Assembly (NCBI GenBank): GCA_051313645.2
Contig: JBNRSN020000904.1
Span: 1-64,000, forward strand
DNA: 64,000 nucleotides
DNA from: Centroscyllium fabricii
Lineage: Eukaryota
Reading direction: 5' to 3'
A program made the translations under genes and the position numbers. The notes beneath the pieces were generated by a model. The model was not told the DNA's origin, made no database searches, and saw only the letters and a list, made by a program, of their open reading frames with translations. Below, one piece after another: positions 10,626 through 64,000 of the stretch (position 1 is its first letter; every line of letters begins with the position of its first letter).

Positions 10626-10629
10626 CCGG

Positions 10630-39096: not shown

Positions 39097-39873
<777 letters not shown>

Positions 39874-39907
39874 CTAGTCAAGGGACAGTGAACCCTGGAC
39901 AGGAGTC

Positions 39908-40322: not shown

Positions 40323-40349
40323 CCCCTCCCCCACTGTGTATTTACAGCA

Positions 40350-40880
40350 ATGGGCAGTGAGCAGGAGGTTGGGATTAGACTAGGTGGGATATTAACGGTA
40401 ATGGGTAGTGAGCACGAGATTGGGATTAGACTAGGTGGGATATTAACGGTAATGGGCAGTGAGCAGGAGATTGGGATTAGACTAGGTGGGATATCGACGG
40501 TAATGGGCAGTGAGCAGGAGGTTTGGATTAGACTAGGTGGGATATTAACGGTAATGGGCAGTGAGCAGGAGGTTGGGATTAGACTAGGTGGGATATTAAT
40601 GGTAATGGGCAGTGAGCAGGAGATTGGGATTAGACTAGGTGGGATATTAACGGTAATGGGCAGTGAGCAGGAGGTTGGGATTAGACTAGGTGGGATATTA
40701 ACGGTAATGGGCAGTGAGCAGGAGGTTGGGATTAGACTAGGTGGGATATTAACAGTAATGGGAAGTGAGCAGGAGGTTGGGAATAGACTAGGTGGGATAT
40801 TAACGGTAATGGGCAGTGAGCAGGAGGTTGGGATTAGACTAGGTGGGATATTTACGGTGAGGGGTAGTGTGCAAGCGGTT
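40350..40880. repeat. 51-bp minisatellite, about 10 units, in intron 3
   Basis: ATGGGCAGTGAGCAGGAGGTTGGGATTAGACTAGGTGGGATATTAACGGTA; 17-aa periodic ORFs. Confidence 0.93.
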
Positions 40881-42020: not shown

Positions 42021-42487
42021 TATAGAAACATAGAAATATAGAAACTAGGAGCAGGAGTAGGCCATTCGGCCCTTCGAGCCTGCTCCGCCATTCAATGAGA
42101 TCATGGCTGATCATCCAAACCCAGCACCCCGCCCCTGCCCTCACCCCATATCCCTCGATCCCTATCGAGCCTCCATCGACACATATCCCACCCTATCCCC
42201 GTAACCCCACCTATTTAATCTCCCTAACACTAAGGGTCAATTTATCCTGGCCAATCAACCTAACCTGCACATCTTTGGACTGTGGGAGGAAACCGGAGCA
42301 CCCGGAGGAAACCCACGCAGACACGGGGAGAATGTGCAAACTCCACACAGATAGTCACCCGAGGCCGGATTTGAACCCGGGTCTCCAGTGCTGTGAGACA
42401 TCAGTGCTAACCACTGTGCCACCGTGCCGCCGTGCCGCCGTGCCGCCGTGCCGCCGTGCCGCCGTGCCGCCGTGCCGCCGTGTCGCC
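42021..42487 (-). mobile_element. HE1-like V-SINE with reiterated 5' octamer
   Basis: (CCGTGCCG)n at about 42422-42482; empty site in the pseudogene near 59275. Confidence 0.88.
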
Positions 42488-42714
42488 CTATACAGAACCC
42501 TCCGATTTTCAGCAGGCGGGCAATCAGTCAAACCGGATTTGCGCCCGGGCGGCGAGGACGAAAATCGAGCCCGCCCCGCCTAACCGGAGTGTCCGCCCAT
42601 CTACCGCTGAAATCAGGGCGGCCAATCAGGAGCCTTCCCCAGTAAATTCCAGGTCATTGTTGGCAGGAATGTAATTGGTCTCTTTTTTTGTGAATGGAAA
42701 TATGGGAGTGACAT

Positions 42715-43003
42715 TGTGGGGGACCTTAGGTTCCCACTCTTAAATTATCGAGAAACGGAGGGAAGCAGAGGAGCAAAATCCAGTAAGTCTTTATTCAAGT
42801 ACAACAACGTAGAACTGAGAGAAAACGGCACGAAAACGCAAAGCACGGTGGGGGCCTCTTGAGTGACAGCCCTACGGACCAATGGGGGACCGTAACCGTT
42901 GACCTAACTTGACCAATAGGCGAACGGGGGAGGGCCCGCTCGGGTAAGGTGGATTCTGAGGTCCTAGAGAGATCGGATGACTCTCTGGAGTGGCTACGCT
43001 ACA
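42715..43003 (-). mobile_element. Solo LTR in intron 3
   Basis: TG..CA, TSD ACAT; empty site in the pseudogene at about 57782. Confidence 0.82.
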
Positions 43004-43153
43004 ACATCAACAACTGATACTGGAGTGACTGAGCAGGTTCTGTGCGCTTGGGACACTTTGCCCGATACAAGGCTTTCCATGATATAATTAGAACTGGATA
43101 GTGGGAGAAGGTGAGGCCGGAAATCCACGGCACACCGACGCGACAGAACCTAC

Positions 43154-43302
43154 CAGCTTGCGGAGGCGATCCAGGACCAGATCCACAATCTCTTTGCCGA
43201 TGGAGCAGTGTCCCCGGGCGTAGTTGTTGGCCGCGTCCTCCTTGCCGGTGATGAGTTGCTCGGGGTGAAAGAGCTGGCGGTAGGTGCCGGTGCGGACCTC
43301 AT
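43154..43302 (-). CDS. TUBA: Alpha-tubulin exon 3 (149 bp)
   Basis: cag|AT GAG GTC..CTG|gtagg; [49 protein letters not shown]. Confidence 0.96.
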
Positions 43303-43483
43303 CTGGAGGCAGAGAACGGGGAATTCAAAACAGGAACACAGAACATTCCAGTCACTTAAATAACAACAGAAAATGCTGGAAAAACTCAGCAGGCCAGGCA
43401 ACATCCGTGGAGAGAAATATAGAGTCGACGTTTCGGGTCAGGACCCTTTGTCAAGACTAAAGCCAGGAAATGAAAGAGGGAGG

Positions 43484-43760
43484 TGTAATAAAATCTGTTG
43501 TCTGTATGTATTCGTTGGCACTCATGTATATTATCCTCCCCCACTGTGCATAGTTTCACTTCCTGTTCCCTGACGATACCTGGGAGATTCCAGGAATTGG
43601 CTTTGGCTCCACCCCTGGCTCACCTTACATAAAGATCCAGGATCTGTATAACTCATTCCTGTGAGACAGCCGTCGAGATGTGAGCTCTAATTCTTAGTGA
43701 TTAAAAGCCTTTCTGTTTAAGTCTATAACTTCTAGTTTTGTAGTTATTGAAGGCCCATCA
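43484..43760 (+). mobile_element. Solo LTR in intron 2, shared with the pseudogene (56153-56428)
   Basis: TG..CA; TSD GGAGG/GTAGG here and perfect CCTAC in the duplicate. Confidence 0.8.
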
Positions 43761-43854
43761 GTAGGAAGCGAAGGGAAAACAAAATAGAAAAGAGACATTC
43801 AGGCCTCATTGAAATGCGTTTAGTGAGAGCGCGGACTGAGCAACCCATCAGCAT

Positions 43855-44367
43855 TCAATTCAATTCAATTCAATTCAATTAAATTCAAATTGCTTTATTG
43901 GCATGACAAGATACATCTTATGTTGCCAAAGCACAGAAAAAGGACATATACAATTGAACATACAAACGCAGGTCCAGACATACAGTGAATGGATAAATAT
44001 GCAAACGTATACATATATACCCACATATAAATCTCATATAATCTTTACTTAGCTTCAGTGGTCACTGGTTGTCCCTCTGCTTATGGCAAGCTGTGACGTA
44101 GTTTGCCGATAATTTTACACAGTCCCTCTGTTCCCCCAATAGATATGGGAGTTTTTGGTGGTCGTTCAAATTTTTGAATTCAGGGCATGTTTTTACGAAT
44201 TTTGGGTAGAAATTCCTCCTTATGCCCTGATAGTTTTCACAAGTTGTGAGGAAATGTAGCTCTGTCTCCACCACTCCCTGACTGCAGTGAGAGCACAGCC
44301 TTTCCTCTCTGGGCAGCCAAGTCTGTCTGTGTCTGCCTTTTTCAATGGCTAGGCTGTGCTCACTAAG
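43855..44367 (-). mobile_element. Non-LTR retrotransposon 3' end (RTE-X-like)
   Basis: ORF 44062..44274 VETELHFLTTC; (AATTG)n tail on the minus strand. Confidence 0.65.
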
Positions 44368-44368
44368 T

Positions 44369-44865
44369 GGGAGGCGGTGGCGTAGTGGTTATGTCACTAG
44401 ACTAGTAAGCCAGAGGCTCAGTCAAATGCTCTGAGGATATGGGTTCAAATCCCACCACGGCAGCTGGTGGAATTTAAAATTCAATTCAATTTAATTCTGG
44501 AATTAAATGCTAGTCTTTGTAATGGCGACCATGATACCATTGTCGATTGTTGCAAAAACCCATCTGGTTCACCAATGTCCTTTAGGGAAGGAAATCTGCC
44601 GTCCTTACCTGGTCTGGCCGACATGTGACGCCAGACCCACAGCAATGTGGTTGACTCTTAATGCCCTCTGAAATGGCCCAGCAAGCCACTCAGTTGTAAA
44701 CAACCGCTATGCAACATTGTGGGTGTACCTACACCAGATGGACTGCAGCGGTTCAAGAAGGCGGCTCACCACCATCTTATCAAGGGCAATTAGGGATGGG
44801 CACTAAATGCAGGCCTAGCCAGCCAGCGACGCCCGCATCCCATCAACAAATAAAAGAAAAAAAAA
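44369..44865 (+). mobile_element. tRNA-derived SINE (family not assigned)
   Basis: A/B-box-like head GGTGGCGTAGTGG..GGGTTCAAATCCCACC, LINE-like tail, A-rich end; second copy at about 56608-56965. Confidence 0.75.
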
Positions 44866-44873
44866 GTCTGCAC

Positions 44874-45155
44874 TGTGGTAACTGTAATTACCACTGTAAA
44901 TAGTTAAGCACACTATAGACCAGCATGTATAGTGGCTGGGTGCATTGTACATAGTTTTGTATCACGACACTGTCGCGAGGTCAGGTCAGCCACACCTCTA
45001 ACTCCTCCCCTCAGGTGAGTGCCTCATAGGTGGGGTTTGACCTGCCCCCATTCATTCTGTACTCGATGTTCGACTGGAGAGTAGCTCCATTGTAAAGTGA
45101 ATAAAAGCCTCCAGTTAAGGTAACTACTCGTCTTTGCTTCATTGACGATACGTCA
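44874..45155 (+). mobile_element. Solo LTR (same family as 49621-49901)
   Basis: TG..CA; perfect 5-bp TSD TGCAC. Confidence 0.85.
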
Positions 45156-45282
45156 TGCACATTGTCAGGGTTTTTCTCAGTTTGCTATCTTTCACCATGG
45201 TCAGGTAATCAGCCATGGTGTACGGTCTGTTTAGGGCCAAATAACAATCTAGTTTGCTTTGGGTTTTTGTCACTCCCCTTAC

Positions 45283-45505
45283 CAATCACAGTGGGCTCCA
45301 GATCTATAAACACGGCTCGGGGAACGTGCTTGCCCGCCCCCGTCTCGCTGAAGAAGGTGTTGAAGGAGTCGTCGCCACCTCCGATGGTCTTGTCACTGGG
45401 CATCTGCCCGTCCGGCTGGATGCCATGCTCCAGGCAATACAGCTCCCAGCAAGCGTTGCCGACCTGCACGCCCGCCTGGCCAATGTGGACTGAAATACAC
45501 TCGCG
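45283..45505 (-). CDS. TUBA: Alpha-tubulin exon 2 (223 bp)
   Basis: tttag|CGC GAG TGT..ATT G|gtaag; [46 protein letters not shown] (K40 present). Confidence 0.97.
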
Positions 45506-46037
45506 CTAAAGAGGGCAGAACACAGGATTATTCACACAGCTCGGAGGGCAATGCTTCATATAGTCAGTGGGGGTGGAAGGAGAAGGGTATGTGGGCAGCG
45601 ACACGTTCTGTAACAGGAAGCTGTGTGTGTGTGGGAAGTGGGGAAGATGCTGGAGTCCACAATATAAAATGTAATAGCTGAGCATTGAAAATCAGTGGCA
45701 GGATCGGACAAAGTCAACATGGATTTACAAAAGGTAAATCGTGCTTGACTAATCTACTGGAATTTTTTGAGGATGTAACTGGGAATATTGGTCAGGGAGA
45801 ACCAGTAGATGTGGTGTACTTAGACTTTCAGAAGGTGTTCAACAAGGTCCCGCACAAGAGATTAGCATATAAAGTTAGGGCACATGGGATTGGGGGCAAG
45901 GTATTGACTTGGATTGAGAATTGGTTGGCGGACAGAAAGCAGAGAGTAGGAGTAAATGGGTCTTTTTCCGAGTGGCAGGCAGTGACTAGTGGGGTACCGC
46001 AGGGATCGGTCCTGGGACCCCAGCTAGTCACAATATA

Positions 46038-46243
46038 AAGTCACACAACAACAGGTTATAGTCCAACAGTTTTAGTTTAAATCACAAGCTTTCAGAGCTT
46101 CTGCCCCTTCGTCAGGTGAAAGAGAGAAGGGGCAGAAGCTCCGAAAGCTTGTGATTTAAAATAAAACTGTTGGACTATAACCTGGTGTTGTGTGACTTCT
46201 TGAAATTGTCCACCCCAGTCCAACACCAGCACCTCCACATCAT
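46038..46243. mobile_element. Fold-back Penelope-like insertion with hammerhead motif (46082-46119, minus)
   Basis: about 75-bp inverted arms; flanking direct repeat TCACAATATA. Confidence 0.75.
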
Positions 46244-46821
46244 TCACAATATACATTAATGTCTCCAAGTTTGCGGATGACACAAAGCTGGGAGGGCGTG
46301 TGTGCTGCGAGGAGGATTCCAGGAAGCTCCAGGATGATTTGGACAGGTTGGGCGAGTGGGCTGAGATGTGGCAGATGCAGTATGATGTGGATAAATGCGA
46401 GGTTATCCACTTTGGGGGCAGAAACAGAAATGCCGACTATTATCTGAATGGCAATAGATTGGGAGAAGGGGAAGTACAACGAGACCTGGGTGTCCTTGTG
46501 CACCAGTCACTGAAGGTGAGCATGCAGGTGCAGCAGGCGGTGAAGAAGACAAATGGTATGTTGGCCTTCGTAGCGAAAGGGTTTGAGTACAGGAACAGGG
46601 AGGTCTTGCTGCAGTTGTACAGGGCCTTGGTGAGACCACACCTTGAGTACTGTGTGCAATTTTGGTCTCCTTATCTAAGGAAGGACGTTCTTGCCATGGA
46701 GGGAGTGCAGAGAAAATTCACCAGACTGATACCTGGGATGGCAGGATTGACGTATGAGGAGAGACTGGGTAGACTGGGTTTGTACTCTCTGGAGTTTAGA
46801 AGATTGAGAGGGGATCTTATT

Positions 46822-47375
46822 GAGCCTGTGTCGGGAGCTGGAGCTCCGTGAGCCTGTGTCGGGAGCTGGAGCTCCGGGGGCCTGTGTCGGGAGCTGGAGC
46901 TTCGGGGAGCCTGTGTTGGGCGCTGGAGCTTCGGGGAGCCTGTGTCGGGCGCTGGAGCTTCGGGGAGCCTGTGTCGGGCGCTGGAGCTCCGGGAGCCTGT
47001 GTCGGGAGCTGGAGTTCGGAGCTCAGGGGAGCCGGGACGGAGCACTCGGAGAGGGCTAGGCTTCAGGCCGCTGCGCCCGGAGATCGGAGTTCCGTGGATT
47101 CGGGGAGTCGGACTGAGAGCGGCCACGCTAGGAACAGTGGCAGAGCGAATTGACTGGGCGAGAGAGGACAATTTTACCAACGGTTGAGTGGCCAGAGCAG
47201 GAACGGGATACTCGATGATGGCGCCGTAATTTGGCTGACGTCTTGCGGGCTCGTTCGCGCCGGGCAGCTTAAGTGTTGCGCGGTTGTTGTTGTTGCACGG
47301 TGTGTCAGGTAGCAGTAAGCATTTCGTTGTATGGTGTTTGTTCACTGTACAATGACAAATAAAAAAATTGAACTT
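46822..47375 (+). mobile_element. SINE-like insertion with GC-rich 28-29-bp tandem head
   Basis: (GAGCCTGTGTCGGGAGCTGGAGCTCCGG)n; AATAAA plus TTGAA tail; 3' part resembles 54536-54780 reversed. Confidence 0.6.
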
Positions 47376-47672
47376 GAAACGTATAAAATTCTAACTGGTC
47401 TGGACAAACTTGATGCAGGAAGAATGTTCCCGATGATTGGAGAGTCCAGAACCAGGAGTTATCGTCCAAGGATAAGGGATAACTCATTTAGGACTGAGAT
47501 GAGGAGGAATTTCTTCACCCAGAGAGTGGTGAACCTGTGGAATTCTCCGCCACAGAGGGCGGTGGAGGCTAGTTCATTGAATATATTCAAGAAGGAGCGG
47601 ATGTATTTCTTAAGGCTAAAGGGATAAAGGGATGTGGGGAGAGGGCAGGAACAGGGTACTGAGTTTGGATGG

Positions 47673-47920
47673 TGATGCGCCAATCAATCACGCCAGTCTT
47701 TCGTGGATCGTAATCAAAGGCTTTTATTCGCTAAGAACAAGACCTGGTCCGCGATGAGTCCTGCCCGGAATGAGAGTCAGGTGGGCGGAGCATCCTCCTT
47801 TATACTCATACCCGGAGGCGGGGTCAGCTGGTCCAGGTGCTTACAGAAAGGAACAACTTTATTAACACAAACTATATACAATAATAACACAGTGTGAACT
47901 TCACTAAATGGTTCACCACA
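47673..47920 (-). mobile_element. Solo LTR
   Basis: TG..CA; TSD GATGG/GATGA; GGCTTTTATTCGCTAA motif. Confidence 0.75.
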
Positions 47921-48274
47921 GATGATGAGCCATGATCTCATTGAATGGCGGAGCAGGCTCGAGGGGCCGAATGGCCGACTCCTGCTCCTATCTTCTATGT
48001 TTCTATGTCCCATCCGTTCCCGCATTCCATGTGGACCCTCACTCCCTGCAGATTGCCCCAAGGTCTCAGTGGACCCCAATTGCTGTGTGGATCTCCCATT
48101 CCTGGTGAACTATTGGATCCTGTAAGCACCACCCCCTCTCCTGTGATTGATCCCTGTGGATCTCCCGTCTCTCTCTGGATCCCTCCACTCTCTCTGCAGA
48201 TCCCTCTCTACCTGTAGACCTCTCTATCCCTGTGGGGACACCGCCGCTCTCTCCATTTCACCCAGTGCGCTTAC

Positions 48275-48277
48275 CAT
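48275..48277 (-). CDS. TUBA: Alpha-tubulin exon 1 coding part (ATG only)
   Basis: ..GGACAGC ATG|gtaagc; vertebrate alpha-tubulins have an intron directly after ATG; same context conserved in the duplicate at 52634. Confidence 0.88.
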
Positions 48278-48338
48278 GCTGTCCTTCTATTCTCGCGGCT
48301 CCTGACAACGTGCTGCATGTGTGTTGCCCCCCGCCCTG

Positions 48339-48480
48339 TTTTATACCGCATCCCATTGAGGCAAACCCGGCTCTGATTGGCCCCTGAGAACAAAAGGGGG
48401 GCGGTTGCTTGGAGCAACATCAACAAAAAGTCACAACGGTGCTCAGCGCGGATTGGCTGCTTTGTGCAAAAGGCGGGGAC
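48339..48480 (-). promoter_or_regulatory. Alpha-tubulin promoter: TATA, two CCAAT boxes, GC box
   Basis: TATAAAA 48345-48339; CCAATC at about 48375-48380 and 48451-48456; GGCGGG at about 48472. Confidence 0.75.
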
Positions 48481-48586
48481 CAAGTGTTGGCAACAATGGG
48501 CTATGGGAGGAGCTCCAGGCAACCAGGGAGACTGGCTGTGCCTGCCTTGTATTGGTTAATTAATGTTTATTGATGACATGTATTGT

Positions 48587-48839
48587 TGTAGTGCTTACAG
48601 GACCCAAGGATCAAGCAGGAGCCGAAGAGGGACGATCAACCCTTGTTTATTCAACCAAACTTTAACAGAAAGAGAGTGAGCCACGAGGAGCAGGCTCTTT
48701 TAAAGCCCCCGCTCTGCAACCTCTGACCTCTGACGTCATCACGCTGAGACGTGATGACATCATCACGTCAATCCCGGTGGGCGGGGCTATGCCCCGCAGT
48801 ATTCCCGAAGGCGGATTCGCCAGCCAGCGATCCGCCACA
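48587..48839 (-). mobile_element. Solo LTR (same family as 61819-62054)
   Basis: TG..CA; TSD TTGT/TTAT; contains TGACGTCA at 48731. Confidence 0.75.
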
Positions 48840-48924
48840 TTATCATCAATATAAATTTATCAAATTTGGAGATATTACATCCAATTCCCTTGTCTAGATC
48901 ATTACTAACAATGCCCCCTTACTA

Positions 48925-49459
48925 ACATAGAAACATAGAAGATAGTAGCAGGAGTAGGCCATTCGGCCCCTCGAGCCTGCTCCGCCATTCAATGAGATCA
49001 TGGCTGATCATCCAAACCCAGTACCCTGTCCCTGCCTTCTCCCCATATCCCTTGATCCCTTTAGCCTTAAGAAATATATCCAACTCCTTCTTGAGTATAT
49101 TTAATGAATTGGCCTCAACTGCCTTCTGTGGTAGAGAATTCCACAGGTTCACCGTTCTCTGGGTGAAGAAATTCCTCCTCATCTGTGTCCTAAATGGCTT
49201 ACCCATTATCCTTAGACTATGACCCCTGGTTCTGGACTCCCCGACCATCGGGAACATCCTTCCTGCATCTAGTCTGTCCAGACCTGTTAGAATTTTATAA
49301 GTTTCGATGAGATCCCCTCTCATTCTTCTAAACTCCAGCAAGTACAAACCCAATCGACCCGATCTCTCCTCGTACGTCATTCCTGCCATCCCAGGTATCA
49401 GCCTGGTGAATCTTCGCTGCAGTCCCGCCATGGCAAGAACATCCTTCCTCAGATAAGGA
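48925..49459 (-). mobile_element. CR1 3' fragment
   Basis: ORF 48922..49542 core; TSD CTTACTA. Confidence 0.9.
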
Positions 49460-49591
49460 CTTACTAGAGGGGCACAACACATAAACCGTAAATCCCCCAA
49501 GTGTAGGCAACAATGGGCTATGGGAGGAGCTCTCGGCAACAAGGGAGACTGGCTTTGTCTGCATTGTGTTGGTTAAGTAACGTTTATTGAT

Positions 49592-49901
49592 CTCCATTTT
49601 AATTTTAAAGCTAATAAAATTGACGTATCGTCAATAATACAAAGACGAGTAGTTACCTTAACTATAGGCTTTTATTAGCTTTACAAAGGAGCTACGCTCC
49701 GGTCGAACATCAGGTACAGAATGAATGGGGGCAGGTCAGACCCCACCTATAAGGCACTCACCTGAGGGGAGGAGTTAGAGGTGTGGCTGACCTGACCCCG
49801 CGACAGTGTCGCAATACAAAGCTGTGTATAGTGCACCCAGCCGCTATACATGCTGGTTTATATTGTGCTTCACTATTACAGTGGTAATAACGGTTACCAC
49901 A
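49592..49901 (-). mobile_element. Gypsy 5' LTR (49621-49901) with retained leader and ATG, otherwise truncated
   Basis: Homologous to 44874-45155; followed on the minus strand by ATTTTATTAGCTTTAAAATTAAAATGGAG. Confidence 0.75.
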
Positions 49902-50008
49902 GACATGTACAGTATTATCGTCAACATAAAGGGACACAACATAATTAAACGAAATTAAAATGAAACTTAACGAACTTTTTCTACCAGACCCCCATCTTAA
50001 CCCATCAA

Positions 50009-50790
50009 TCGGTAAAAATAGAGAGACAGACTATTATCTGAATGGTGACAGATTAGGGAAAGGGGAGGTGCAACGAGACCTGGGCGTCATGGTACATCGG
50101 TCACTGAAGGTGGGAATGCAGGTACAGCAGGCAATCAAGAAAGCAAATGGCATGTTGTCCTTCATAGCGAGGGGATTTGAGTACAGGAGTAAGGAGGTGT
50201 TGCTACAGTTGTACAGGGCCTTGGTGAGGCCACACTTGGAGTATTGTGTGCAGTTTTGGTCTCCTAACTTGAGGAAGGACATTCTTGCTATTGAGGGAGT
50301 GCAGCGAAGGTTTACTAGATTGATTCCCGGGATGGCCGGACTGACATATCAAGAAAGACTGGATCAACTGAACTTGTACTCTCTGGAGTTCAGAAGAATG
50401 AGGGGGGATCTCATAGAAACGTTTAAAATACTGATGGGTTTAGACAGGTTAGATGCGGGCAGAATGTTCCCAATGTTGGGGAAGTCCAGAACCAGGGGTC
50501 ACAGTCTAAGGATAAGGGGTAAGCCATTTAGGACTGAGATGAGGAGAAACTTCTTCACCCAGAGAGTGGTGAACCTGTGGAATTCTCTACCACAGAAAGT
50601 TGATGAGGCCAGTTCACTAAATATATTCAAAAGGGAGTTAGATGTAATACAACTAGGGTGATCAAGGGGTATGGCGAGAAAGCAGGAACGGGGTACTGAT
50701 GTAGCATGTACAGCCATGAACATGTTGAATGGCGGTGCAGGCTCGAGGGGCCGAATGGCCTACTCCTGCACCTATTTTCTATGTATGTAT
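50009..50790 (+). mobile_element. CR1 3' fragment
   Basis: ORF 49960..50661; closely similar to the 1838-2787 subfamily. Confidence 0.92.
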
Positions 50791-51181
50791 CTAATCAGAC
50801 CCCATCATTCGGAACCCCATGAACCAGACCCCATCCACCTTCTGACTCTAACTATTAGACCCACATCTATCCGATCATCTGTGGGACCCCCTTCTATCAG
50901 TGCTGCCTCAATCGGCCCCCATCGATCAGATCCCCGTCTACTATAGTCACATTTGTCAAATCTCAGCTTTCGGCTCCCATTCTTTCAGATCACCATGCAT
51001 CATAGGAATATCGGAATGTAGGAACGTAGGAATCTCGGAACAGGAGGGGGCCATTCAGCCCCTCGAGCCTGTTCCGCCATTCAATGAGCTCATGGCTGAT
51101 CTGTGTCCTGTTACGCGCCCTTGTCTCATTCGCTTTGCTTAACTAAAATCTATCAATCTCAGATTTAAAATGAACATTTGA

Positions 51182-52590
51182 TGTCGTGCAGGGGAGCGAG
51201 TTTTCCTATCCTGAGGGAGCCCACACGGAGGGAAGGTTCACAACGGGTCTTTTACTTCCAAACTCCAAATCAACACTGAACACAAAAGCCCGCGAATCAC
51301 GTGATGACGTCATCGCTTTGAGTTACGTGGTTCGTTTTCCCTCGCTCTTAAAGGGAAGGTACATTACACAGGTTAAAGGGAATTATACATAAACGTTTTA
51401 TACACAGATTGTGCACCGTTAATCCGTTACCCGATAAGCCGGAAACTTCAGTCTTCCGGAACAAATTGCCCGACTGCCCGGCGCATGCGCAAAATAGCCG
51501 CCGCGATTGCTGCTTCAGTGAATGATCTGCGCACGCGCCGCCAAACGGCGAGCGCATGCGCAGATCATTCACAATGGCCGCCGAAGTTTTTAATGATCTG
51601 CGCATGCGCTGCCGAACGATGCCGGGCCGGGCCTTCCCGAGCCTCGCTTTACCAAGCTGGGCCGGGGCTTCCCGAGCCTTCCCGAGCTGGGCCTTGCCTT
51701 CCCGAGCCGGGCCTCGCCTCGCCTTACCGAGCCTTCCCGAGCCGGGCCTTGCCTTCCCGAGCCGGGCCTCGCCTCGCCTTACCGAGCCTTCCCGAACCGG
51801 GCCGGGGCTTCCTGAGCCGGGCCTTGCCTTCCCGAGCCGGGCCTTACCGAGCCTCCTCGAGCCGGGCCTCACCGAACGATAAGCGCATGCGCAGACCACT
51901 CAAAATGGCCGCTGGCCTTTCGCGGTGGCCATTTTGAATGGTCTGCGCATGCGCTCGCCGAAGCTTCAATCGTTCGGGATTTTCACTTTCCCGGCATCGG
52001 CCTGGTCCCGCCCGTGCCGGACTAACGGTGCTCATCCTGTACAAGTATCTGCAATGGTATGTGGCCCTGCCACATGCGCCCCCCCCCCCAGAATTGTCTT
52101 TAACAGAGAGGTCAATCGTATGGGCAGCTTGACGAGACGACCAGAATGGCTGTGGTATCCAGACGCCGGAGGCTGTGGCGTGCTCGGCGGACTGGAAGGC
52201 TGCAAGGCAGGCTGGCTGTTCGGTTGACAGGCAGGCGGACTGACGGGCTGGCAGGCAAGCGGGCTGGCAGGCTGGCAGGAGGGTGGACTGGCGAGCGGCT
52301 GGAGCGCCTCAGGGTGAATGCCGACAGGAGGTCTCCCATGTTTCGGTGACATTGCTGGTTGTACTGGGGAGTTGGAGTCCAGGTGTGCCGGTTTGGGGCG
52401 GTTCACCGAGACGTGGTCGGGCTTGCCACCCATGTCCAGGGTGGAGGACTTCTCACCTGCTTCCAACACATGGAAGGGTCCAGTGTACGGGGCCTGGAGA
52501 GGGTCTCTGTGTGCGTCTTGGCGCACAAACACGTAATCCGCCTGCTGGAGGTCCTTAGGCACGTGGGAGTGCTGGAAACCGTCGGGAAAC
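51182..52590 (-). mobile_element. Gypsy 3' end: integrase C-terminus, PPT, 3' LTR (52074-51182) interrupted by a MITE
   Basis: YVFVRQDAHRDPLQAPYTGPFHVL (GPY/F domain); G-tract at 52079-52089 before TGTGGC; LTR ends ..CGACA. Confidence 0.82.
51405..52039. mobile_element. Complete MITE with TIRs and CpG-rich internal repeats
   Basis: CAGATTGTGCACCGTTAATCCG..CGGACTAACGGTGCTCATCCTG|TA; multiple GCGCATGCGC; (CCGAGCC/GGGCCTT)n interior. Confidence 0.7.
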
Positions 52591-52866
52591 ACACACGCAG
52601 CACATTGTCAGGAGCCGAGAATAGAAGGACATTATGGTAAGCGCACGGGGCGAAATGGAGAGAGCGGCGGTGCCCCCAGAGATAGAGAGATCTACAGGTA
52701 GAGCGGGATCTGCAGGGGGAGTGGAGGGATCCAGAGAGAGACGGGAGATCCACCGGGAGTGTCCAGCAATCACCTTTGATTGCTGTGATTATCTCTCTGC
52801 CGAGGTGTGATAAAGGGCAGTTGGAAAGATTACCTGTAATCATCTGGCATTGTTCTCTGACTATAT

Positions 52867-54325
52867 ATGGATAAACATAATTTAATAGGACAAAGCCAGC
52901 ATGGTTTTATGAAGGGGAAGTCTTGTTTGACAAATTTGTTGGAATTCTTTGAGGAAGTAACATATAGGGTGGATAAAGGGGAACCAGTGGACGTAGTGTA
53001 TTTAGACTTTCAAAAGGCATTTGACAAGGTGCCACACAAAAGATTATTGCTTAAAATAAAAAATCACGGAATTGGGGGTAATATTGTGGCATGGATAGAG
53101 GATTGGCTATCTAACAGAAGGCAGAGAGTTGGGATAAATGGTTCATTCTCAGACTGGCAATCGGTAACTAGTGGTGTTCCGCAGGGGTCAGTGCTGGGAC
53201 CCCAACTCTTTACAATCTATATTAACGATTTGGAGGAGGGGACCGAGTATAACATATCAAAGTTTGCAGATGATACTAAGATGGGAGGGAAAGTAGTGAG
53301 GGAGGAGGACATAAAAAACCTGCAAGGGGACATAGACAGGCTAAGTCAGTGGGCAGAGATTTGGCAGATGGAATACAATACTGGAAAGTGAGGTTATGCA
53401 CTTTGGCAGGAAAAACCATAGAGCAAGTTATTATCTTAATGGAAAGGAACTGGAAAGTACTGTAGTACAAAGGGATCTGGGGGTCCTGGTGCACGAAACT
53501 CAAAAGGTTAGTATGCAGGTGCAGCAAGTGATTAAGAAGGCCAATGGAATGTTGGCTTTCATTGCTAGGGGGATACAATATAAAAATAGGGAGGTATTGC
53601 TTCAGTTGTACAAGGTATTGGTGAGACCGCACCTGGAATACTGCGTACAGTTTTGCTGTCCATACTTAAGAAAGGACATACTCGCTCTCGAGTCAGTACA
53701 AAGACGGTTCACTCGGTTAATCCCAGGGATGAGGGGTTGGACATATGAGGAGAGGTTGAGTAGATTGGGACTCTACTCATTGGAGTTCAGAAGAATGAGG
53801 GGAGATCTTATTGAAACATATAAGATTGTGAAGGGGTTGGATCGGGTGGACGCGGGGATGATGTTCCCAATGATGGGTGAAACTAGAACTAGGGGGCATA
53901 ATCTTAGGATAAGGGACTGCTCTTTCAAAACTGAGATGAGGAAAAACTACTTCACTCAGAGGGTAGTAGGTCCATGGAACATGTTGCCCCAAAAAGCTGT
54001 AGAAGCTACATCATTGCATAAATTTAAAACAGAAATAGACAGTTTCCTAGTAGTAAAAGGGATTAAGGGTTACGGGGAGCAGGCAGGAATTTGGACATGA
54101 GTCTAGGTTCAGATCGGTCATGGCCCTGTGGGTAGTGGGGCGGGCCCAGGGACTGCGTAGCCTGATCCTGCTCCTATTTTGTGTGTCTAATTCTGTTAGA
54201 TGCAGGAGATGGTTCTGTGATAGTAGATTGGTTGTCAGGATCAGATCAGCCATGATCTGATTGAATGGCGGAGCAGGCTCGAGGGGCCGATTGGCCGACT
54301 CCTGCTCCTATTTCTTATGTTCTTA
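52867..54325 (+). mobile_element. CR1 LINE (RT plus 3' end, frameshift near 53390) in pseudogene intron 1
   Basis: ORFs 52867..53391 and 53396..54100. Confidence 0.93.
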
Positions 54326-54354
54326 TATGCTGTGCCTATATGCATCTCTTCACT

Positions 54355-54391
54355 TCACCTGAGGAAGGAGCAGCGCTCCGAAAGCTTGTGA
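54355..54391 (+). ncRNA. Minimal type I hammerhead ribozyme motif in PLE remnant (54326-54481)
   Basis: TCAC-CTGAGGA-AGGAGCAGCGCTCC-GAAA-GCTT-GTGA. Confidence 0.7.
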
Positions 54392-54780
54392 TTTCAAATA
54401 AAGCTGTTGGACTATAACCTGGTGTTTGTGTGACTTCTTACATTTGTCCACCCCAGTCCAACACCGGCACCTCCACATCACAGGAGAGGGGGCGGTGCTT
54501 GCAGGATCCAATAGTCCACCAGGAATGGGAGATCCAATTCAATTTCAATTTTATTTCAATTTTAGTTGTCACATGTACTAAAATACAACCAGTGTAATCT
54601 GGACAGTGAAATGTTTTATTCACGGTTCGAACGCACCGCGCAACAAAGAACCCTAAGCTGCCCGATATGCCCGGAGCCCGTGAGACGGCAGCCACCTCAC
54701 CAGCGCCATCAATCACAAGTCCCGTTCTCGTACCGCTCCGGCCTCTCCTGCACGCAAATTTCTTAAAGTTCTTAAAGTCC

Positions 54781-55440
54781 TCAATTCAATTCAATTCAAT
54801 TCAAGTTTTATTGTCATTGCAGAGAACTAGTACAATACAACGAGACGAAGACTCGACGCTCCCGAGAGTAGTGCAAATAAATTACATGCAAATTGCATAC
54901 AGTAAAGTTCATTGTCAGGCGTGCAGGTACCGGAGTTTCTTTTTAGAGTTCAGGAGGCTGACAGCCCTGGGGAAGAAGCGGTTCTGAAATCTGGTCGTGC
55001 GGGTGCGAATTGCTCTGTAGCGTCTCCCGGAGGGGAGGGGTGCGAACAGACTGTGGCTGGGGAGTGTGGGGTCTTTAATAATGTTCAGAGACCTCCGTAA
55101 GCAGCGTTTGAGGTAGATGCTTTCCATTGACGGTAGCTGGGTACCGGTGATTCGTTGGGCAGTTTTGACTACCCGCTGCAGGGTTTTCCGGTCCGAGATA
55201 GTGCAATTTCCATACCAGACTGTGATGCAGCTTGTCAGTATGCTTTCTATTGTGCAGCGGTAGAAGTTGGAGAGGATGCCGGATGACAGCCTGGCTTTCT
55301 TCAGCTTCCTTAGGAAGTATAGGCGCTGTTGGGCCTTCTTAACCAGAGAGGAGGTGTTTAGTGACCAGGAGAGATCTTCCGAGATGTGGACCCCGAGGAA
55401 CTTGAAGCTGGACACCCTTTCCACCTCAGCCCCTTTCTGT
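54781..55440 (-). mobile_element. Rex1/Babar-like LINE 3' end
   Basis: VERVSSFKFLGVHISEDLSWS..KKAQQRLYFLRKL..CTIESILTSCITVWYG; (AATTG)n tail. Confidence 0.85.
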
Positions 55441-55821
55441 TGTTTCACTCGCTCCCCCTGAATCGTCTCGGAGACCTGGGCTCCGGGGGCCGCATTGGAA
55501 GGCCCTGGGCCTACCCTGGTCCGACGCCATGCTGCCCCCCCCCCCCCGCTGAGCTCCGAACTCCGGGGGCAGCGCCCGGAGGCCTGTGACCAGCCTCTCG
55601 GGCTCCAGCAATTGGGGTCCACTGAGATCGGGACTTTCCGAGAGACTGGGGCAATCCGCTGGGAGTGAGGGTCCACATGGAATGTGGGAACGGATGGGGC
55701 ACACAGCTTCCTGTTACAGAACGTGTCGCTGCCCACATACCCTTCTCCTTCCACCCCCACTGACTATATGAAGCATTGTCCTCCGAGCTGTGTGAATAAT
55801 CCTGTGTTCTGCCCTCTTTAG

Positions 55822-55953
<132 letters not shown>

Positions 55954-56965
55954 TGACGACTCCTTCAACACCTTCTTCAGCGAGACGGGGGCGGGCAAAC
56001 ACGTTCCCCGAGCCGTGTTTATGGATCTGGAGCCCACTGTGATTGGTAAGGGGAGAGATTGCTGATGGGTTGCTCAGTCCGCGCTCTCACTAAACGCATT
56101 TCGATGAGGCCTGAATGTCTCTTTTCTATTTTGTTTTCCCTTCGCTTCCTACTGATGGGCTTCAATAACTACAAAACTAGAAGTTATAGACTTAAACAGA
56201 AAGGCTTTGAATCACTAAGAATTAGAGCTCACATCTTGACGGCTGTCTCACAGGAATGAGTTATACAGATCCTGGATCTTTATGTAAGGTGAGCCAGGGG
56301 TGGAGCCAAAGCCAATTCCTGGAATCTCCCAGGTTTCGTCAGGAAACAGGAAGTGAAACTATACGCAGTGGGGGAGGGTAATATACATGAGTGCCAACGA
56401 ATACATACAGACAACAGATTTAATTACACCTACCTCTTTCATTTCCTTGCTTTAGTCTTGACTGTGGTATACCAATGTTTGTACTCTTGCCTGTGTGTAT
56501 ACATGCCTGGGCATGCCTGAAGCCGACTCCGTCCCTAGCCTGCCTGATATAGGCCCAGACTTTGGGAGCCTGGCTCACTACAAGGAGTTGCCAGTCAGCC
56601 TAAGGATGCGTAGTGGTTATGTCACTAGACTAATAAGCCAGAGACTCAGTCAAATGCTCTGAGGATATGGGTTCAAATCCCACCACAGCAGCTGGTGGAA
56701 TTTAAATTCAATTGAATTTAAATCTGTAATTAAATGTTAGTCTTAGTAATGGCGACCATGATACCATTGTCGATTGTTGCAAAAACCCATCTGGTTCACT
56801 AATGTCCTTCAGGGAAGGAAATCTGCCGTCCTTACCTGGTCTGGCCTACATGTGACTCCAGACCCACAGCAATGTGGTTGACTCTTAATGCCCTCTGAAA
56901 TGGCCCAGCAAGACACTCAGTTGTAAACAACCGCTATGCAACATTGTGGGTGTACCTACACCATT

Positions 56966-57376
56966 GGGCGGCACGGTGGCACAGTGGTTAGCACTGTTGC
57001 CTCACAGCACTGGAGACCCGGGTTCAAATCCAGCCTCGGGTACTATCTGTGTGGAGTTTGCACATTCTCCCCGTGTCTGCGTGGGTTTCCTCCGGGTGCT
57101 CCGGTTTCCTCCCACAGTCCAAAGATGTGCGGGTTAGGTTGATTGGCCAGGATAAATTGACCCTTAGTGTTAGGGGGATTGAATATGTGGGGTTACGGGG
57201 ATAGGGTGCGATATGTGTCGGTGCAGGCTCGATGGGGATCGAGGGATATGGGGGGAGGGCAGGGACAGGGTACTGAGTTTGGATGATCAGCCATGATCTC
57301 GTTGGATGGTGGAGCAGGCTCGAAGGGCCGAATGGCCTACTCCTGCTCCTAGTTTCTATGTTTCTATGTTTCTATG
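56966..57376 (+). mobile_element. HE1-like V-SINE, full length
   Basis: GGGCGGCACGGTGGC head to (TTTCTATG)n tail. Confidence 0.9.
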
Positions 57377-57861
57377 TTTTACATACAGAGAGGGTCATAC
57401 ATAAAATGCTGACGGGTACAGATATGGTACATATATATAATACAGTGGTTTACCACACACATATCCCACCCTATCCCCGTAAAGGGTCAATTTATCCTGG
57501 CCAATCAACCTAACCCGCACATCTTTGGACTGTGGGAGGAAACCGGAGCACCCGGAGGAAACCCACGCAGACACGGGGAGAATGTGCAAACTCCACACAG
57601 ATAGTACCCGAGTCTTGGATCACCTACGCAAGCTGGTAGGTTCTGTCGCGTTGGTGTGCCGTGGATTTGCTGCCTCAGCTTCTCGCACTATCCAGTTCTA
57701 ATTATATCATGGAAAGTCTTGTATCGGGCAAAGTGTCCCAAGTGCACAGAACCTGCTCATTCACTCCAGTATCACTAATTGATGTCACTCCCACATTTCC
57801 ATTCATAAAAAAAGGGACCAATTACATTCCTGCCAACAATGACCTGGAATTTGCAGGGGAA

Positions 57862-59127
57862 CACAGACACAGAGAAGATAGGAGCAGGAGTCGGCCATTC
57901 GGCCCCTCGCGCCTGCTCCGCCATTCAATGAGCGGCACAGTGGCACAGTGGTTAGCATTGTTGTCTCACAGCACTGGAGACCCGGGTTCAAATCCAACCT
58001 CGGGTGACTATCTGTGTGGAGTTTGCACATTCTCCCCGTGTCTGCGTGGGTTTCCTCCGGGTGCTCCGGTTTCCTCCCACAGTCCAAAGATGTGCGCGTT
58101 AGGTTGATTGGCCAGGATAAATTGACCCTTAGTGTTAGGGGAGATTGAATATGTGGGGTTACGGGGATAGGGTGGGATATGTGTCGATGCAGGCTCGATA
58201 GGGATATAGGGAGAGGGCAGGGGCGGGGTGCTGGGTTTGGATGATCAGCCATGATCTCATTGAATGGTGGAGCAGGCTCGAAGGGCCGAATGGCCTACTC
58301 CTGCTCCTAGTTTCTATGTTTCTATGTTTCTATCATGGCTGATCATCCAAACTCAGTACCCTGTCCCTGCCTTCTCCCCATATCCCTTGATCCCTTTAGC
58401 CTTAAGAAATATATCCAACTCTTTCTTGAATATAATTAATGAACCGGCCTCCACCGCCCTCTGTGGTAGAGAATTCCACAGGTTCACCACTCTCTGGGTG
58501 AAGAAATTCCTCCTCATCTCTGTCCTAAATGAGTTAGCCCTTATCCTTAGACTGTGACCCCTGGTTCTGGACTCCCCGGTCTCTTTGCACTTCCCCTTCT
58601 CCCAATCTATTGCCATTCAAATAATAATCTGCCCTCCTGTTTTTGCCACCGAAGTGGATAACCTCGCATTTATCCACATTATAGTGCATTTGCCGTGTTT
58701 CTGCCCAATCACCCAACCTGCCCAAATCGTACTGGAGTTTCACGACATCCTCCTCGCAGCCCACACGCCCACCCAGCTTTGTGTCATCTGCAAACTTGGA
58801 GATACTACATTCAATTCCCTTGTCCAGATCATTAATATATATTGTGAACAGCTGGGGTCCTAGGACCGATCCTTGCGGTACCCCACTAGTCACTGCCCCA
58901 CGAGTCACGACCCATTTATTCCAACTCTTTGCTTTCTATCTGCCAACCAGTTTTCTATCCAAGTCAGTACCTTGCCCCCAATCCCATGTGCCTTAATTTT
59001 GCACGCCAATCTCTTACGCGGGACCTTATCGAAAGCCTTCTGAAAGTCCAAATACACCACATCCACTGGTTCCCCCTTATCTATTCTACCAGGTACATCC
59101 TCAAAAAATTCCAGTAGATTAGCCAAG
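57862..59127 (-). mobile_element. Deleted CR1 with nested HE1 SINE (57931-58333) in pseudogene intron 3
   Basis: ORFs 58353, 58534 and 58905; flanking GCAGGG(G)AA duplication; absent from the functional gene. Confidence 0.85.
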
Positions 59128-59750
59128 CAGGGAAGGCTCCTGATTGTCCGCCCTGATTTCAGCGGTAGATGGGCGGACACTCCGGTTAGGCGGGGCGGGC
59201 TCGATTTTCATCCTCACCGCCTGGGCGCAAATCCGGTTTGACTGATTGCCCGCCTGCTGAAAATCGGAGGGTTCTATAAGAAGCATGCGTTCCGCTCCAC
59301 TAGATCACCACTCAAGCCCTGAACACCCCGAACTCAACTGGTCTCCCAGCTCCATCTGTGCCTTCCAGCCCTGGTTCCCTACAAACTCCACGACAAATCC
59401 CAATGCTCCATCGCCCAGGCTCCCACTGTCCCATCTCCCAAACTCCCACCAACTAGCCCATCTCACCAGGGACAGTCTGTATCTTGACTCCTGTCCAGGA
59501 TGCACTGTCCCTTGCCAATGGATTCTATTTCTTGCTCCCTTTTAATGTCTTGTACGCTTTTTGCCCACAGGCTGACCAGTGCACAGGACTGCAGGGATTC
59601 CTCATCTTCCACAGTTTCAGCGGTGGGACAAGCTGAGGCTTCCCTTCCCTCCTGATTGAGAGACTCTCTGTCGACTACGGCAAGAAATCCAAACTGGAGT
59701 TTTCCGTTTACCCCGCGCCGCAGATCTCCACCGCAGTGGTTGAGCTCTAC

Positions 59751-60303
59751 TGATAAACTTTGGCTAATTCTAGATTGCTTTACGATAGTTTGACATGGGT
59801 TAAAAGTTTAGAAGCAAAGAGGTAAAGTATAGCGACAGGCTGTCTGTACATAGAGATCTTCTCTCTCTCTCTTTCTGATAACAAAGCTGCAGCTGCAAGA
59901 TAAGGAGGAAGGAGGAGTCAACACAAGATGTTGACATTTAGTTGGGTTTTGTACTGTGTCTATATATTTTTTTCTCCATTGGTTGTTTTTGTTTTTAAGT
60001 ATTATTCGTTGAGCTTATGTACATTTAATCTTTTTGCAAGGTCTTTTTGCATTTATGTATTGTATCAATAATTGCAGTCTCAGAGCGAGCGGCGCACTTC
60101 TGGGTTGCTATGCTTGTGTGCAAACACAAGGGGTCTCTCAGAGTGAAGTACCGGTACTGGGTAATAAACGTTAAGTATTTTACAGTTTCTGACTTTGTGT
60201 ATTACTGAGAAAGTGACAGACTGACCGACGTGTTTAGTCTCCTAAAGTAAGAACCCAGACCCCCAGGAGGGTGGGTCCTCCTCACAGAGTGAGTGAGCTA
60301 ACA
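59751..60303 (+). mobile_element. Solo LTR, family A, inserted in pseudogene exon 4
   Basis: TG..CA; perfect TSD CTAC; AATAAA near 60163. Confidence 0.9.
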
Positions 60304-61165
60304 CTACAACTCCGTGCTCATCACCCACTGCACCCTCGAGCACTCGGACTGCGCCTTCATGGTGGACAACGAGGCCATTTACGACGTGTGTCGGCGTAAC
60401 CTTGACATTGAGCGCCCCACCTACGCCAACCTCAACCGTATCATCGCACAGATGGTGTCGTCCATCACGGCATTGCTGCGCTTCGACAGAGCCCTCAACG
60501 TGGACCTGACTGAGCTCCAAACCAACCTGGCCCCCTATCCCCGCATTCACTTCCCGCTGGCGACCTACGCGCCCCTTATTTCGGCTGAGAAGGCTTACCA
60601 CGAGCAGCTCTCCGTGCCTGAGATCACCAATGCCTGCTTTGAGCCAGCCAACCAGATGATGAAGTGCGACCCTCGGCAGGGCAAGTACATGGAGTGCTGC
60701 ATGCTGTACCGAGGAGACGTGGTGCCAAAGGATGTCAACGCCTCCATCGAGAGCAAGCGCTCGATCCAGTTTGTTGATTGGTGCCCGACTCAGTTCAAGG
60801 TAAGTGTGGGTTCTATGTCCATAAGAACATAAGAAATAGGAGCAGGAGTAGGCCAATCGGCCCCTTGAGCCTGCTCTGCCATTCAACAAGATCATGGCTG
60901 ATCTGACCCTAACCTCAATTTTATTTTCACTCTCCATCCCGCCCAAACCTATGTGATCACCCGGGAGAGGCGAAAAACCAGATTAAAAAACCCAGTGGCC
61001 AATTTGGGAGAAAAAATCTGGGAAATTCCTCTCCGACCCATCCAGGCGATCGAAACTGGTCCAGGAGATCACTCTGACCCTGAATTTCCTGCAGAACCTA
61101 CCTTCTGTAAGAGGTGATCTCCACCCCAGCCAGGAACAGACCCAATTTACTCTTGAAGGAATCCA

Positions 61166-61577
61166 GGGCGGCACGGTGGCATAGTGGTTAGCACTGTTGC
61201 CTTACAGCACTAGAGACCCGGGTTCAAATCCAGCCTCGGGTGACTATCTGTGTGGAGTTTGCACATTCTCCCCGTGTCTGCGTGGGTTTCCTCCGGGTGC
61301 TCCGGTTTCCTCCCACAGTCCAAAGATGTGCGGGTTAGGTTGATTGGCTATGATAAATTGACCCTTAGTGTTAGGGGGATTGAATATGTGGGGTTACGGG
61401 GATAGGGTGGGATATGTGTCGGTGCAGGCTCGATAGGGATCGAGGGATATGGGGACAAGGCAGGGGCGGGGTACTGGGTTTGGATGATCAGCCATGATCT
61501 CATTGAATGGCGGAGCAGGCTCGAAGGGCCGAATGGCCGACTCCTGCTCCTATCTTCTATGTTTCTATGTTTCTATG
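61166..61577 (+). mobile_element. HE1-like V-SINE, full length
   Basis: Same family; flanked by GAATC. Confidence 0.9.
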
Positions 61578-61818
61578 AATCAGCATGCTGGTTGGCAGCC
61601 TGTTCCCGAGGTCTCCACTACTCCCTGTGAATAGAACCCTCTCCTGACATCTAACATAGAATCAAAACACAAGAAATAGGAGCAGGACCAGGCCATATGA
61701 CTCCCGGGCCCGCTCCGCCTCCCACAGGACCATGGCCGATCCGAACCTAGACTCACGTCCACTTCCCTGCCCACTCCCTGTAACCCCGAATTCCCTTTAC
61801 TTCTGGGAAACTATCTAT

Positions 61819-62054
61819 TGTAGCGCTTACAGGACCCAAGAACCACACAGGAGCCGGAGAGACAGTTAACACTTGTTTAATTAACGACTACATGAGAAAG
61901 AGACTGAACCACAAGGAGCCGGCTTATTTAAACTACCCGCTGCTCGTGACCTCATCACGCCGAGAGACGTGGTGACATCATCGCATCACCCGGTGGGCGG
62001 GGTTATGCCCCGCATGACTCCCGAGGCGGATTCGCCAGCCGGCGTACCGCTACA
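61819..62054 (-). mobile_element. Solo LTR (family of 48587) within a CR1 3' fragment
   Basis: TG..CA; TSD CTAT/CAAT. Confidence 0.75.
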
Positions 62055-62269
62055 CAATCTCTGTTTTAAATTTATTTAATGTCGCAGCTTCTGCAGCTCT
62101 CTGGGGCAGCAAATTCCAATCCATGGAGCCCTGAAGAATCATGGGATTGTGGTATTCTGATCTCCCAATTGTAGTGTTACTATCTTAACATTTTAAATTA
62201 CTGAGAGCCACATGAGATGAGATTCACTCTTGTATGTTTAATTTGATCTCAATTCCTTGCTTGCTCACT

Positions 62270-64000
62270 GCACACAAAACGGGCTGAAATTAGTTTAATG
62301 GAGGCGCGGGTGCCGGGGTGGGACAGGCCATGGAGGGTCTCAAAAATGCGCCGCCTCCATGCGTGGGGGACGACGGGTCTGGGCTGCGGTAACGATACGT
62401 TGCAGCAGACTACGGTGGCCGCGGGGCCGTGTGCGATGTTGGCCAGGCGTAGGCCAGGGAGGTTTTCTGCTGGGTTGAGCAGGTCTGGGTCCGCCTGCTG
62501 GTCTGCTGCCAGCTTGGCGTAATCAACCGCCATTTGGGCGGCGTTAATGGTGGGACGTGACAGGCAGTCAGCAACCACGTTGTCGCGGCCGGAGATGTGC
62601 TGGATGTCGGTAGTGAATTCCGACACGGCTGCAAGTTGGCGCTGCTGCCTGGCCGACCAGGGTTCAGAGATCTTAGCCATTGCGAATATCAGTGGCTTAT
62701 GATCCACGAAAGCTGTGAAGGGACGGCCCTCCAGGAGGAAGTGAAAATGGCGCACAGCGAGGTAGAGAGCGAGGAGCTCCCTGTCGAAGGCGCTGTACTT
62801 GACCTCTGGGGGCCGTAGGTGCCGGCTGAAAAAGGCCAGGGGCTGCCAGGAGTTGCCCGCCCACTGTTCAAAAACGGCCCCGACAGCGTGGTCGGAGGCG
62901 TCAGTGGTGAGGGCCACTCTGGCGTTGGGCCTGGGGTGGGCTAGGAGGGTGGCGTTGGCCAGGGCGGTCTTGGTTGCGGTGAACGCGGTGGCGGCGTCGG
63001 CCGTCCACTCGACAGCGGTTTTGCCGGACTGCCCGCGTGTGGCCTGGTATAGGGGAGCCATGAGAGCGGCTGCACCTGGGATGAAGCGGTTATAAAAGTT
63101 AACCATCCCGAGGAACTCCTGCAGGCCCTTGATGGAGTGCGGGCGGGGGAATTCCTGGACTGCCTGCACTTTGGAGGGCAGGGGTATGGTCCCGGTTTTG
63201 GAAATGCGGTGGCCCAGGAAGTCTATGACTTCTAGGCCGAATTTGCATTTGGAGGGGCTTAATATAAGGCCGTGTTCGGTCAGACGCTGGAACAGGGTCC
63301 TGAGATGCAGGAGGTGCTCCTGGGGGGAGGTGCTGGCCACGAGGATGTCGTCTAAGTAGACGTAAATGAACTGCTAGTCCCGTAGGACTGAGTCCATTAG
63401 GCGCTGAAAGGCCTGGGCCGCGTTTTTGAGTCCGAAGGGCATCCTGAGGAACTCGAACAGGCCGAAGGGGGTAATTACGGCTGTCTTGGGGACATCCGCC
63501 GGGTGCACCGGGACCTGGTGGTAGCCACGCACCAGGTCGATCTTGGAGAAGATCGTGCAGCCCGCTAGCCTGGCGGAGAAATCCTGGATTTGGGGTACGG
63601 GGTACCTATCCGGGGTCGTGGCGTTGTTGAGGCGGCGGTAGTTGCCGCAGGGGCGCCAACCCCCGGCCGGCTTGGGGGCGATGTGGAGGGGAGAGGCCCA
63701 GGGGCTGCTGGAGCGGTGTATTATGCCGAGTTGCTCCATAGTGCCGAACTCGGTGCGCGCAATCTCCAGCTTGGCCGGGTCCAGCCTGCGGGCGTGGGCG
63801 TGCACGGGAGGGCCGGTGGTGTGGATAAAGTGTTCCACCCCGTGTTTGGCCGTGCGGGCGGTGAAGGTGGGGTTGGTCAGGGCTGGGAACTCAGAGAGGA
63901 GCGAGCTGTACGCGTCTGAGTTCCGGGCGCGGCATTGTGCCGCCGCGTGGGCCAGGAGTGCCGGCCCTGTGGAGCATGGGATGGTCGACATATTTTGAAT
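62270..64000 (-). mobile_element. Gypsy pol (RT, RNase H, start of integrase zinc finger), one in-frame stop, truncated at about 62270
   Basis: SPWASPLH, DRYPVP, FLRMPFGLKNA, VYLDD, TTDASD, LHGLSHPG; TAG at 63374-63376. Confidence 0.93.

Follow-up and report, generated by a model that had tools for sequence, protein, structure and literature searches.

The 64,000-nucleotide stretch of Centroscyllium fabricii DNA analysed here (contig JBNRSN020000904.1 of assembly GCA_051313645.2, hereafter the window) contains an alpha-tubulin gene and, head-to-head with it at a distance of 4,254 bp, a decayed copy of its first part, which takes the place of the integrase core in what is probably a single split Gypsy long terminal repeat (LTR) retrotransposon. 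We consider it likely that this copy arose by DNA-templated local repair of a break in the Gypsy element, for which the neighbouring tubulin gene served as template. The retained introns, the presence of bases upstream of the predicted transcription start, the antisense orientation relative to the Gypsy element and the adjacency to the parent gene all argue for a DNA template. Moreover, the duplicated segment, the 4,254-bp spacer and the inverted copy replacing a deleted segment together form the pattern of the structural variant class called Loss-invDup.

The tubulin pseudogene copy extends from exon 1 to early intron 4 (52584-62177, +) and aligns with the parent (48329-39062) in 12 collinear blocks. 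A preliminary description of this DNA, made from the letters alone, had reported an antisense tubulin copy with introns, ending early in intron 4 and facing its parent head-to-head about 4.3 kb away. The block alignment confirms the 3' end and the measured distance agrees, but only 2,531 of the 9,594 bp of the copy are homologous to the parent, and exon 3 is mostly gone; the remaining 7,063 bp are inserts with no counterpart at the corresponding positions of the parent. Divergence between copy and parent is 5.2% (131 mismatches at 2,513 sites). The first block (52584-52758, +, equivalent to parent 48329-48151) covers the 5' untranslated region, exon 1 and the start of intron 1. Exon 2 of the copy (55822-56045, +) bears a 1-nt frameshift. 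A repeat insert at 56463-57611 replaces 272 parent bp including most of exon 3, of which the final 24 nt are left, and exon 4 (59571-60800, +) has a nonsense codon, a 9-nt deletion and an LTR-like insert (59751-60303, with a CTAC duplication) that splits the exon. The 14 synonymous and 18 non-synonymous codon differences between the two versions of exon 4 are as expected when one side is unconstrained. Despite this decay, the copy retains splice sites, has sequence from the first three introns and from part of the fourth, and contains no exon-exon junction. A downstream exon 5, which the preliminary description had named as the sign of an ordinary inverted duplication, was not found: no exon 5 motif occurs in the 64-kb window outside the parent.

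Private sequence between the blocks is similar in amount on both sides, 7,063 bp in the copy and 6,741 bp in the parent. Because short flanking duplications border several of these inserts in copy and parent, we read them as later insertions. The copy may have lost by deletion two stretches that only the parent has, one of 272 bp (with most of exon 3) and one of 1,906 bp (in intron 3). On both grounds, the original duplicated unit would have measured about 3-5 kb. Two other readings were rejected: an assembly artefact, in view of the 5.2% divergence and the separate insertions of copy and parent, and a simple inversion, given that both Gypsy pieces lie on one strand and in order.

The parent gene (36500-48277, -) has 451 codons in five exons (48277-48275, 45505-45283, 43302-43154, 39822-39142 and 36799-36500; 1,356 nt without internal stop), and all four of its introns are GT-AG. 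Its product matches Pfam Tubulin and Tubulin_C, and exon 4 corresponds to residues 126-352 of alpha-tubulin in solved structures (E 2e-149). The sequence shows a TATA box (TATAAAA) at 48339-48345 (-), the first T being 48345, with CCAAT-like motifs upstream of it. A third tubulin was not found in the 64-kb window. The parent C-terminus reads KAEEEEE (36500-36525, -) and lacks a terminal tyrosine. Parent intron 3 also contains an exon-like stretch of 58 codons that closes with a GT donor (41808-41635, -) and is not in the copy; it may resemble the N-terminal exon of shark NLR-like genes, and a search of the ESM Atlas with 41635-41808 gave no usable match.

Gypsy sequence flanks the copy on both sides. 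Beyond its 3' end, a pol region (62273-64000, -) encodes reverse transcriptase (RT) and RNase H and breaks off within the integrase zinc finger; it has one in-frame stop (63374-63376) and continues past the window. The break in the zinc finger, placed earlier at about 62270, is seen at 62273, where positions 1-35 of the 59 of Pfam H2C2 are covered; this match scores under the curated cut-off, and the homologue alignments agree with it. On the other side of the copy, an integrase C-terminus, polypurine tract and LTR had been said to resume on the same strand at about 52590, and they do so from about 52583. The C-terminal region forms a single open frame (52113-52583, -), which gave no Pfam match, and is followed by a polypurine tract with an 11-G run, recognized by sequence (52079-52091, -), adjoining the 3' LTR (51182-52074, -). 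This LTR of 893 bp has the TG...CA ends of the interval described before, but about 636 bp of it (51404-52039) are a palindromic insert with 23-nt terminal inverted repeats, apparently like a miniature inverted-repeat transposable element (MITE), and about 255 bp remain without it. An end related to this insert lies at 8305-8434.

To compare the two pieces, 120 homologues found with the pol piece were tested against the C-terminal piece. The C-terminal piece was matched by 102 of them at 41-65% identity, and the 18 without a match were omitted from the gap count. As had been noted, the integrase catalytic core is missing, and the loss amounts to about 228 codons (~680 bp): the gap is exactly 228 residues in 64 of the 102 homologues, with the 10th-90th percentile at 224-229. 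The window's two other Gypsy C-termini drew weak matches from 1 and 18 of the 120 homologues. The shared strand, the right order, the shared homologues (102/120) and the ~228-codon gap indicate that both pieces are probably one split Gypsy element. Ranking of the homologues by the two pieces also agrees (rho 0.485, 101 of 120 homologues), a level reached by 33% of 101 true pairs versus 7% of 10,088 mismatched pairs. This test moderately supports a single lineage, as judged from the protein sequences, rather than identity of family. For close proteins of the same family, a near-length search gave no long close match, none of 439 longer candidate proteins matched the C-terminal query, and a metagenome scan yielded one locus at 49%.

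The two junctions bear most directly on the mechanism. Homology at the 5' side starts at parent 48329 (gapless from 48325), which is 16-20 nt past the first T of the TATA box. According to mouse cap analysis gene expression data, as described in PMC1779604, the distance from TATA to start is usually 30-31 nt and mostly 27-34 nt, and motifs closer than 28 nt are generally non-functional. By this mouse rule, the parent start is predicted at about 48315-48314. The copy had been described as promoterless and starting near the transcription start; the TATA and CCAAT boxes are indeed absent from it, but its first bases lie 10-15 nt ahead of the predicted start, and over this stretch it equals the parent at 10 of 11 or 13 of 15 bases. 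It thus contains DNA that a TATA-driven transcript would not. A candidate microhomology of 3-4 nt (GGG/CGGG) is present at this junction. At the other end, homology fades at 62177 and the last block is 81% identical. Between this end of the copy and the Gypsy pol lie 95 bp (62178-62272) for which no match was found in the parent or elsewhere in the window. Compared with intron 4, these 95 bp score at chance level (295 of 500 shuffles as high), and against its last 150 nt their score was equalled by 57 of 500 shuffles, which led us to reject the idea that they are the end of intron 4 and that the 3' break fell at the splice acceptor.

For the origin of the copy, the preliminary description had offered local break repair or copying of unspliced nascent RNA; our results support the former and disfavour the latter, because bases upstream of the predicted start are included. 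In the course of events that we favour, a Gypsy element would first have landed upstream of the tubulin promoter, at a distance of a few kb. Later, a break or a stalled fork in its integrase region may have allowed a 3' end to switch by fold-back to the tubulin gene just downstream of the TATA box, possibly aided by the 3-4 nt of microhomology. Synthesis would then have run through about 3-5 kb of a gene more compact than today's, into intron 4, and rejoining at the far Gypsy side would have cost about 680 bp of integrase and left the 95 bp of unassigned origin. The resulting copy is broken and has neither TATA nor CCAAT box. The junction duplications suggest that copy and parent each gained several kb of separate insertions afterwards. 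Since 62% of the region from 29.4 to 64 kb is repeat-derived, a break within a transposon is unremarkable here and needs no special cause. The product is most likely inert.

Several observations weigh against this account. The closest full-length homologue is 65% identical, so that family-level identity of the two Gypsy pieces is unproven; the rho of 0.485 is also reached by 13-16% of mismatched pairs of close relatives; the window ends at 64000, which leaves the partner LTR and the target duplication outside; and the 95 bp have no match. The unproven family identity and the 95 bp between copy and pol would be in line with an ordinary inverted duplication and two separate Gypsy insertions of one clade, trimmed afterwards by deletions at both ends of the copy. 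The C-terminal piece also appears more decayed than pol (conserved positions changed 2/21 vs 5/205, p=0.13, not significant; observed/expected CpG 0.66 vs 0.83). Nevertheless, we regard such a history as improbable, because it requires two elements of the same strand and clade to be cut such that their pieces complement each other in the right order, with some 680 bp of integrase between them, and because the rank test favours the true pair by about 2-4.5 to 1. A further difficulty concerns relative ages. The Gypsy pol piece, whose 732 codons contain one stop and no frameshift, looks somewhat younger or less worn than the copy by marginal statistics: 7 of 226 conserved Gypsy positions are changed, compared with 21 of 298 codons of the copy (p=0.05; with a looser threshold 14 of 277, p=0.38), and insertion sites number 1 vs 6 (p=0.07). 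Divergence is also uneven among the blocks, from 1.7 to 19% (chi-square p 1.5e-9), and mismatches outside coding sequence cluster to a degree reached by 58 of 5,000 permutations. The blocks at 55702-56462 and 59135-59489 are 2-3.5% diverged, and those near exon 1 and around exon 4 are 7-19% diverged. CpG decay was considered as a cause and does not account for the pattern. A single clean copying, without later gene conversion or a second donor, leaves the unevenness unexplained; gene conversion between the inverted arms is its simplest account. Both the age contrast and the unevenness would also be in line with an older donor: a tubulin duplicate already in decay, or several paralogues in mosaic, whose sequence would have been transferred or copied, inserts included, into a younger split Gypsy. 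This is unlikely in our view, although it is the alternative that we take most seriously. The age contrasts are marginal and weaken at the looser threshold, 1 stop in 732 codons fits a decay of 2.5-5% (P 0.23-0.59), a parent with introns up to 98% shared lies 4 kb away, and the window contains no third tubulin.

The closeness of the 5' breakpoint to the predicted start is striking, and the DNA-repair model does not predict it. If the break had been repaired on or from unspliced nascent tubulin RNA, the copy would start at the transcription start, and its 5' end indeed lies at most 15 nt from the predicted start with the TATA box excluded; moreover, a nearby transcript would retain introns. On the other hand, homology begins 16-20 nt after TATA, as against starts 27-34 nt away in the mouse data described in PMC1779604, and none of the three complete introns could have been spliced out. 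The promoterless start could also result from open chromatin, from selection against promoter-bearing copies or from later deletion. We therefore give an RNA template little credence. Equally little is due to a combined scenario, in which the break was patched at an open, transcribing tubulin start through an R-loop or nascent RNA and the LTR-driven antisense cassette tunes tubulin via small RNAs, or in which the cassette was copied in trans to other places as a non-autonomous element with introns. Least probable of all is LTR-mediated retroposition, by which RT would have switched onto tubulin RNA within the particle and the chimera would have inserted near the gene. Replacement of an internal open reading frame (ORF) by host sequence is a hallmark structure of that process as described in PMC5131818, but the introns are retained, upstream bases are present and the copy is antisense to the Gypsy element, whereas a co-packaged sense RNA would be expected to give the same orientation. 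An insertion 4 kb from the parent would, in addition, be a matter of chance.

Local DNA-templated repair resembles processes described elsewhere. Loss-invDup is a defined structural variant class (as presented in PMC12583596), and the local 2-jumps of Li et al. (2020, PMC7025897), which combine a deletion with a nearby duplication via inverted junctions, are explained there by local copy-and-paste. The present locus is similar in that a segment was lost (about 228 codons, given one element) and a nearby inverted duplication sits at the site of loss. It differs from the variants described in these sources in being old, germ-line, from a non-human vertebrate, overwritten by insertions and located inside a transposon. 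Among animal single-copy Pack-TIRs, 160 of 281 lie at most 15 kb from their parents, most of these within 5 kb, and their gap-filling is described as independent of transposition, with the breaks lying inside the element (Tan et al., 2021, PMC8277862). Here too, DNA from a nearby host gene appears to have filled a gap inside a resident transposon at the cost of some element sequence. Pack-TIRs show short or no microhomology according to that account, and the 5' junction here has the candidate of 3-4 nt. The parent is close in cis (4,254 bp), the copy has the introns and upstream bases of a DNA-level copy, and the Gypsy pieces around the host sequence share clade, strand and order. However, the host is a Gypsy LTR retrotransposon and not a DNA transposon with terminal inverted repeats (TIR), which places it outside the strict definition of a Pack-TIR, and the ~680 bp lost exceed the Pack-TIR median of 4.6% of the element given in PMC8277862. 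LTR-mediated retrocopies, as characterized by Tan et al. (2016, PMC5131818), are alike in that host gene sequence replaces part of an internal ORF and in that non-autonomous movement of the unit is conceivable in principle. They are described as derived from mRNA and detected by intron loss, whereas the present copy has introns and upstream bases, is antisense and lies beside its parent. Another relevant case is Pxyfem, LTR-linked retrocopies of PxyMasc that yield silencing RNAs (as reported in PMC9674220). By analogy, an antisense gene fragment beside a truncated LTR-element ORF might give RNAs that silence the parent; Pxyfem is, however, spliced, multicopy and W-linked with demonstrated small RNAs according to that report, and our locus is known from its sequence alone. 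In narrow keyword searches of the open-access literature, neither this locus nor any local capture with introns in an LTR element of an animal came up. The locus is a new example of a known, fairly ordinary rearrangement process.

The surrounding DNA is that of a repeat-rich vertebrate region in which CR1-like long interspersed elements and a 400-bp short interspersed element (SINE) are abundant; the look of these repeats suggests a cartilaginous fish. Within the interval from parent to copy (48330-52583), 85% is repeat-derived; its spacer part (48330-51181) includes the parent promoter as well as LTR-like, CR1 and SINE pieces of later date. Directly upstream of the parent promoter is a direct repeat of 95 bp (89% identical, 48480-48574 and 49497-49591). 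A solo-LTR-like pair, 76% identical, is found in the spacer (48586-48839) and in an insert within intron 4 of the copy (61819-62055). A satellite with a 27-bp unit extends over 18.8 kb (10625-29420) and produces long spurious ORFs; a CR1-like piece of RT breaks it at about 18300-19600. A second Gypsy element of another clade (30050-34320, -) contains gag, RT and integrase, and its RT is split by a CR1 3' end at 31927-32345. A third Gypsy integrase piece is present at 8932-9702 within 8300-9710, near the relative of the MITE-like insert at 8305-8434. Among the 22 sequencing runs listed, four contain 55-60% of the words of 47900-56500, and none of the 22 is an RNA run containing these words.

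The cassette formed by the split Gypsy and its tubulin insert may have been mobilisable at birth, when its size would have been about 7.5-9.5 kb. It is now decayed and oversized, with an insert of 9,689 bp. Movement at present would need help in trans and is unlikely, because the integrase core is gone, pol contains a stop and the LTR is interrupted. It is geometrically correct, as far as the arrangement of the sequence goes, that a transcript from a 5' LTR, if one beyond 64000 fires, would be antisense to tubulin exons 2 and 4. Within the insert, however, the Gypsy strand has six AATAAA signals, which could cut such a transcript short. Neither an RNA template nor a mobile cassette found support in this analysis.

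Finally, as we read it, the locus is a clear natural example that DNA repair alone can leave an LTR element bracketing host gene sequence, and finding a gene fragment in a Gypsy element is therefore not enough to prove retroposition. Repair and retroposition can be told apart by the presence of introns, the orientation of the fragment, its distance from the parent and the inclusion of upstream bases. If the cassette moves or makes antisense small RNAs, it would illustrate how an accident of repair can give rise to a regulator of a cytoskeletal gene.

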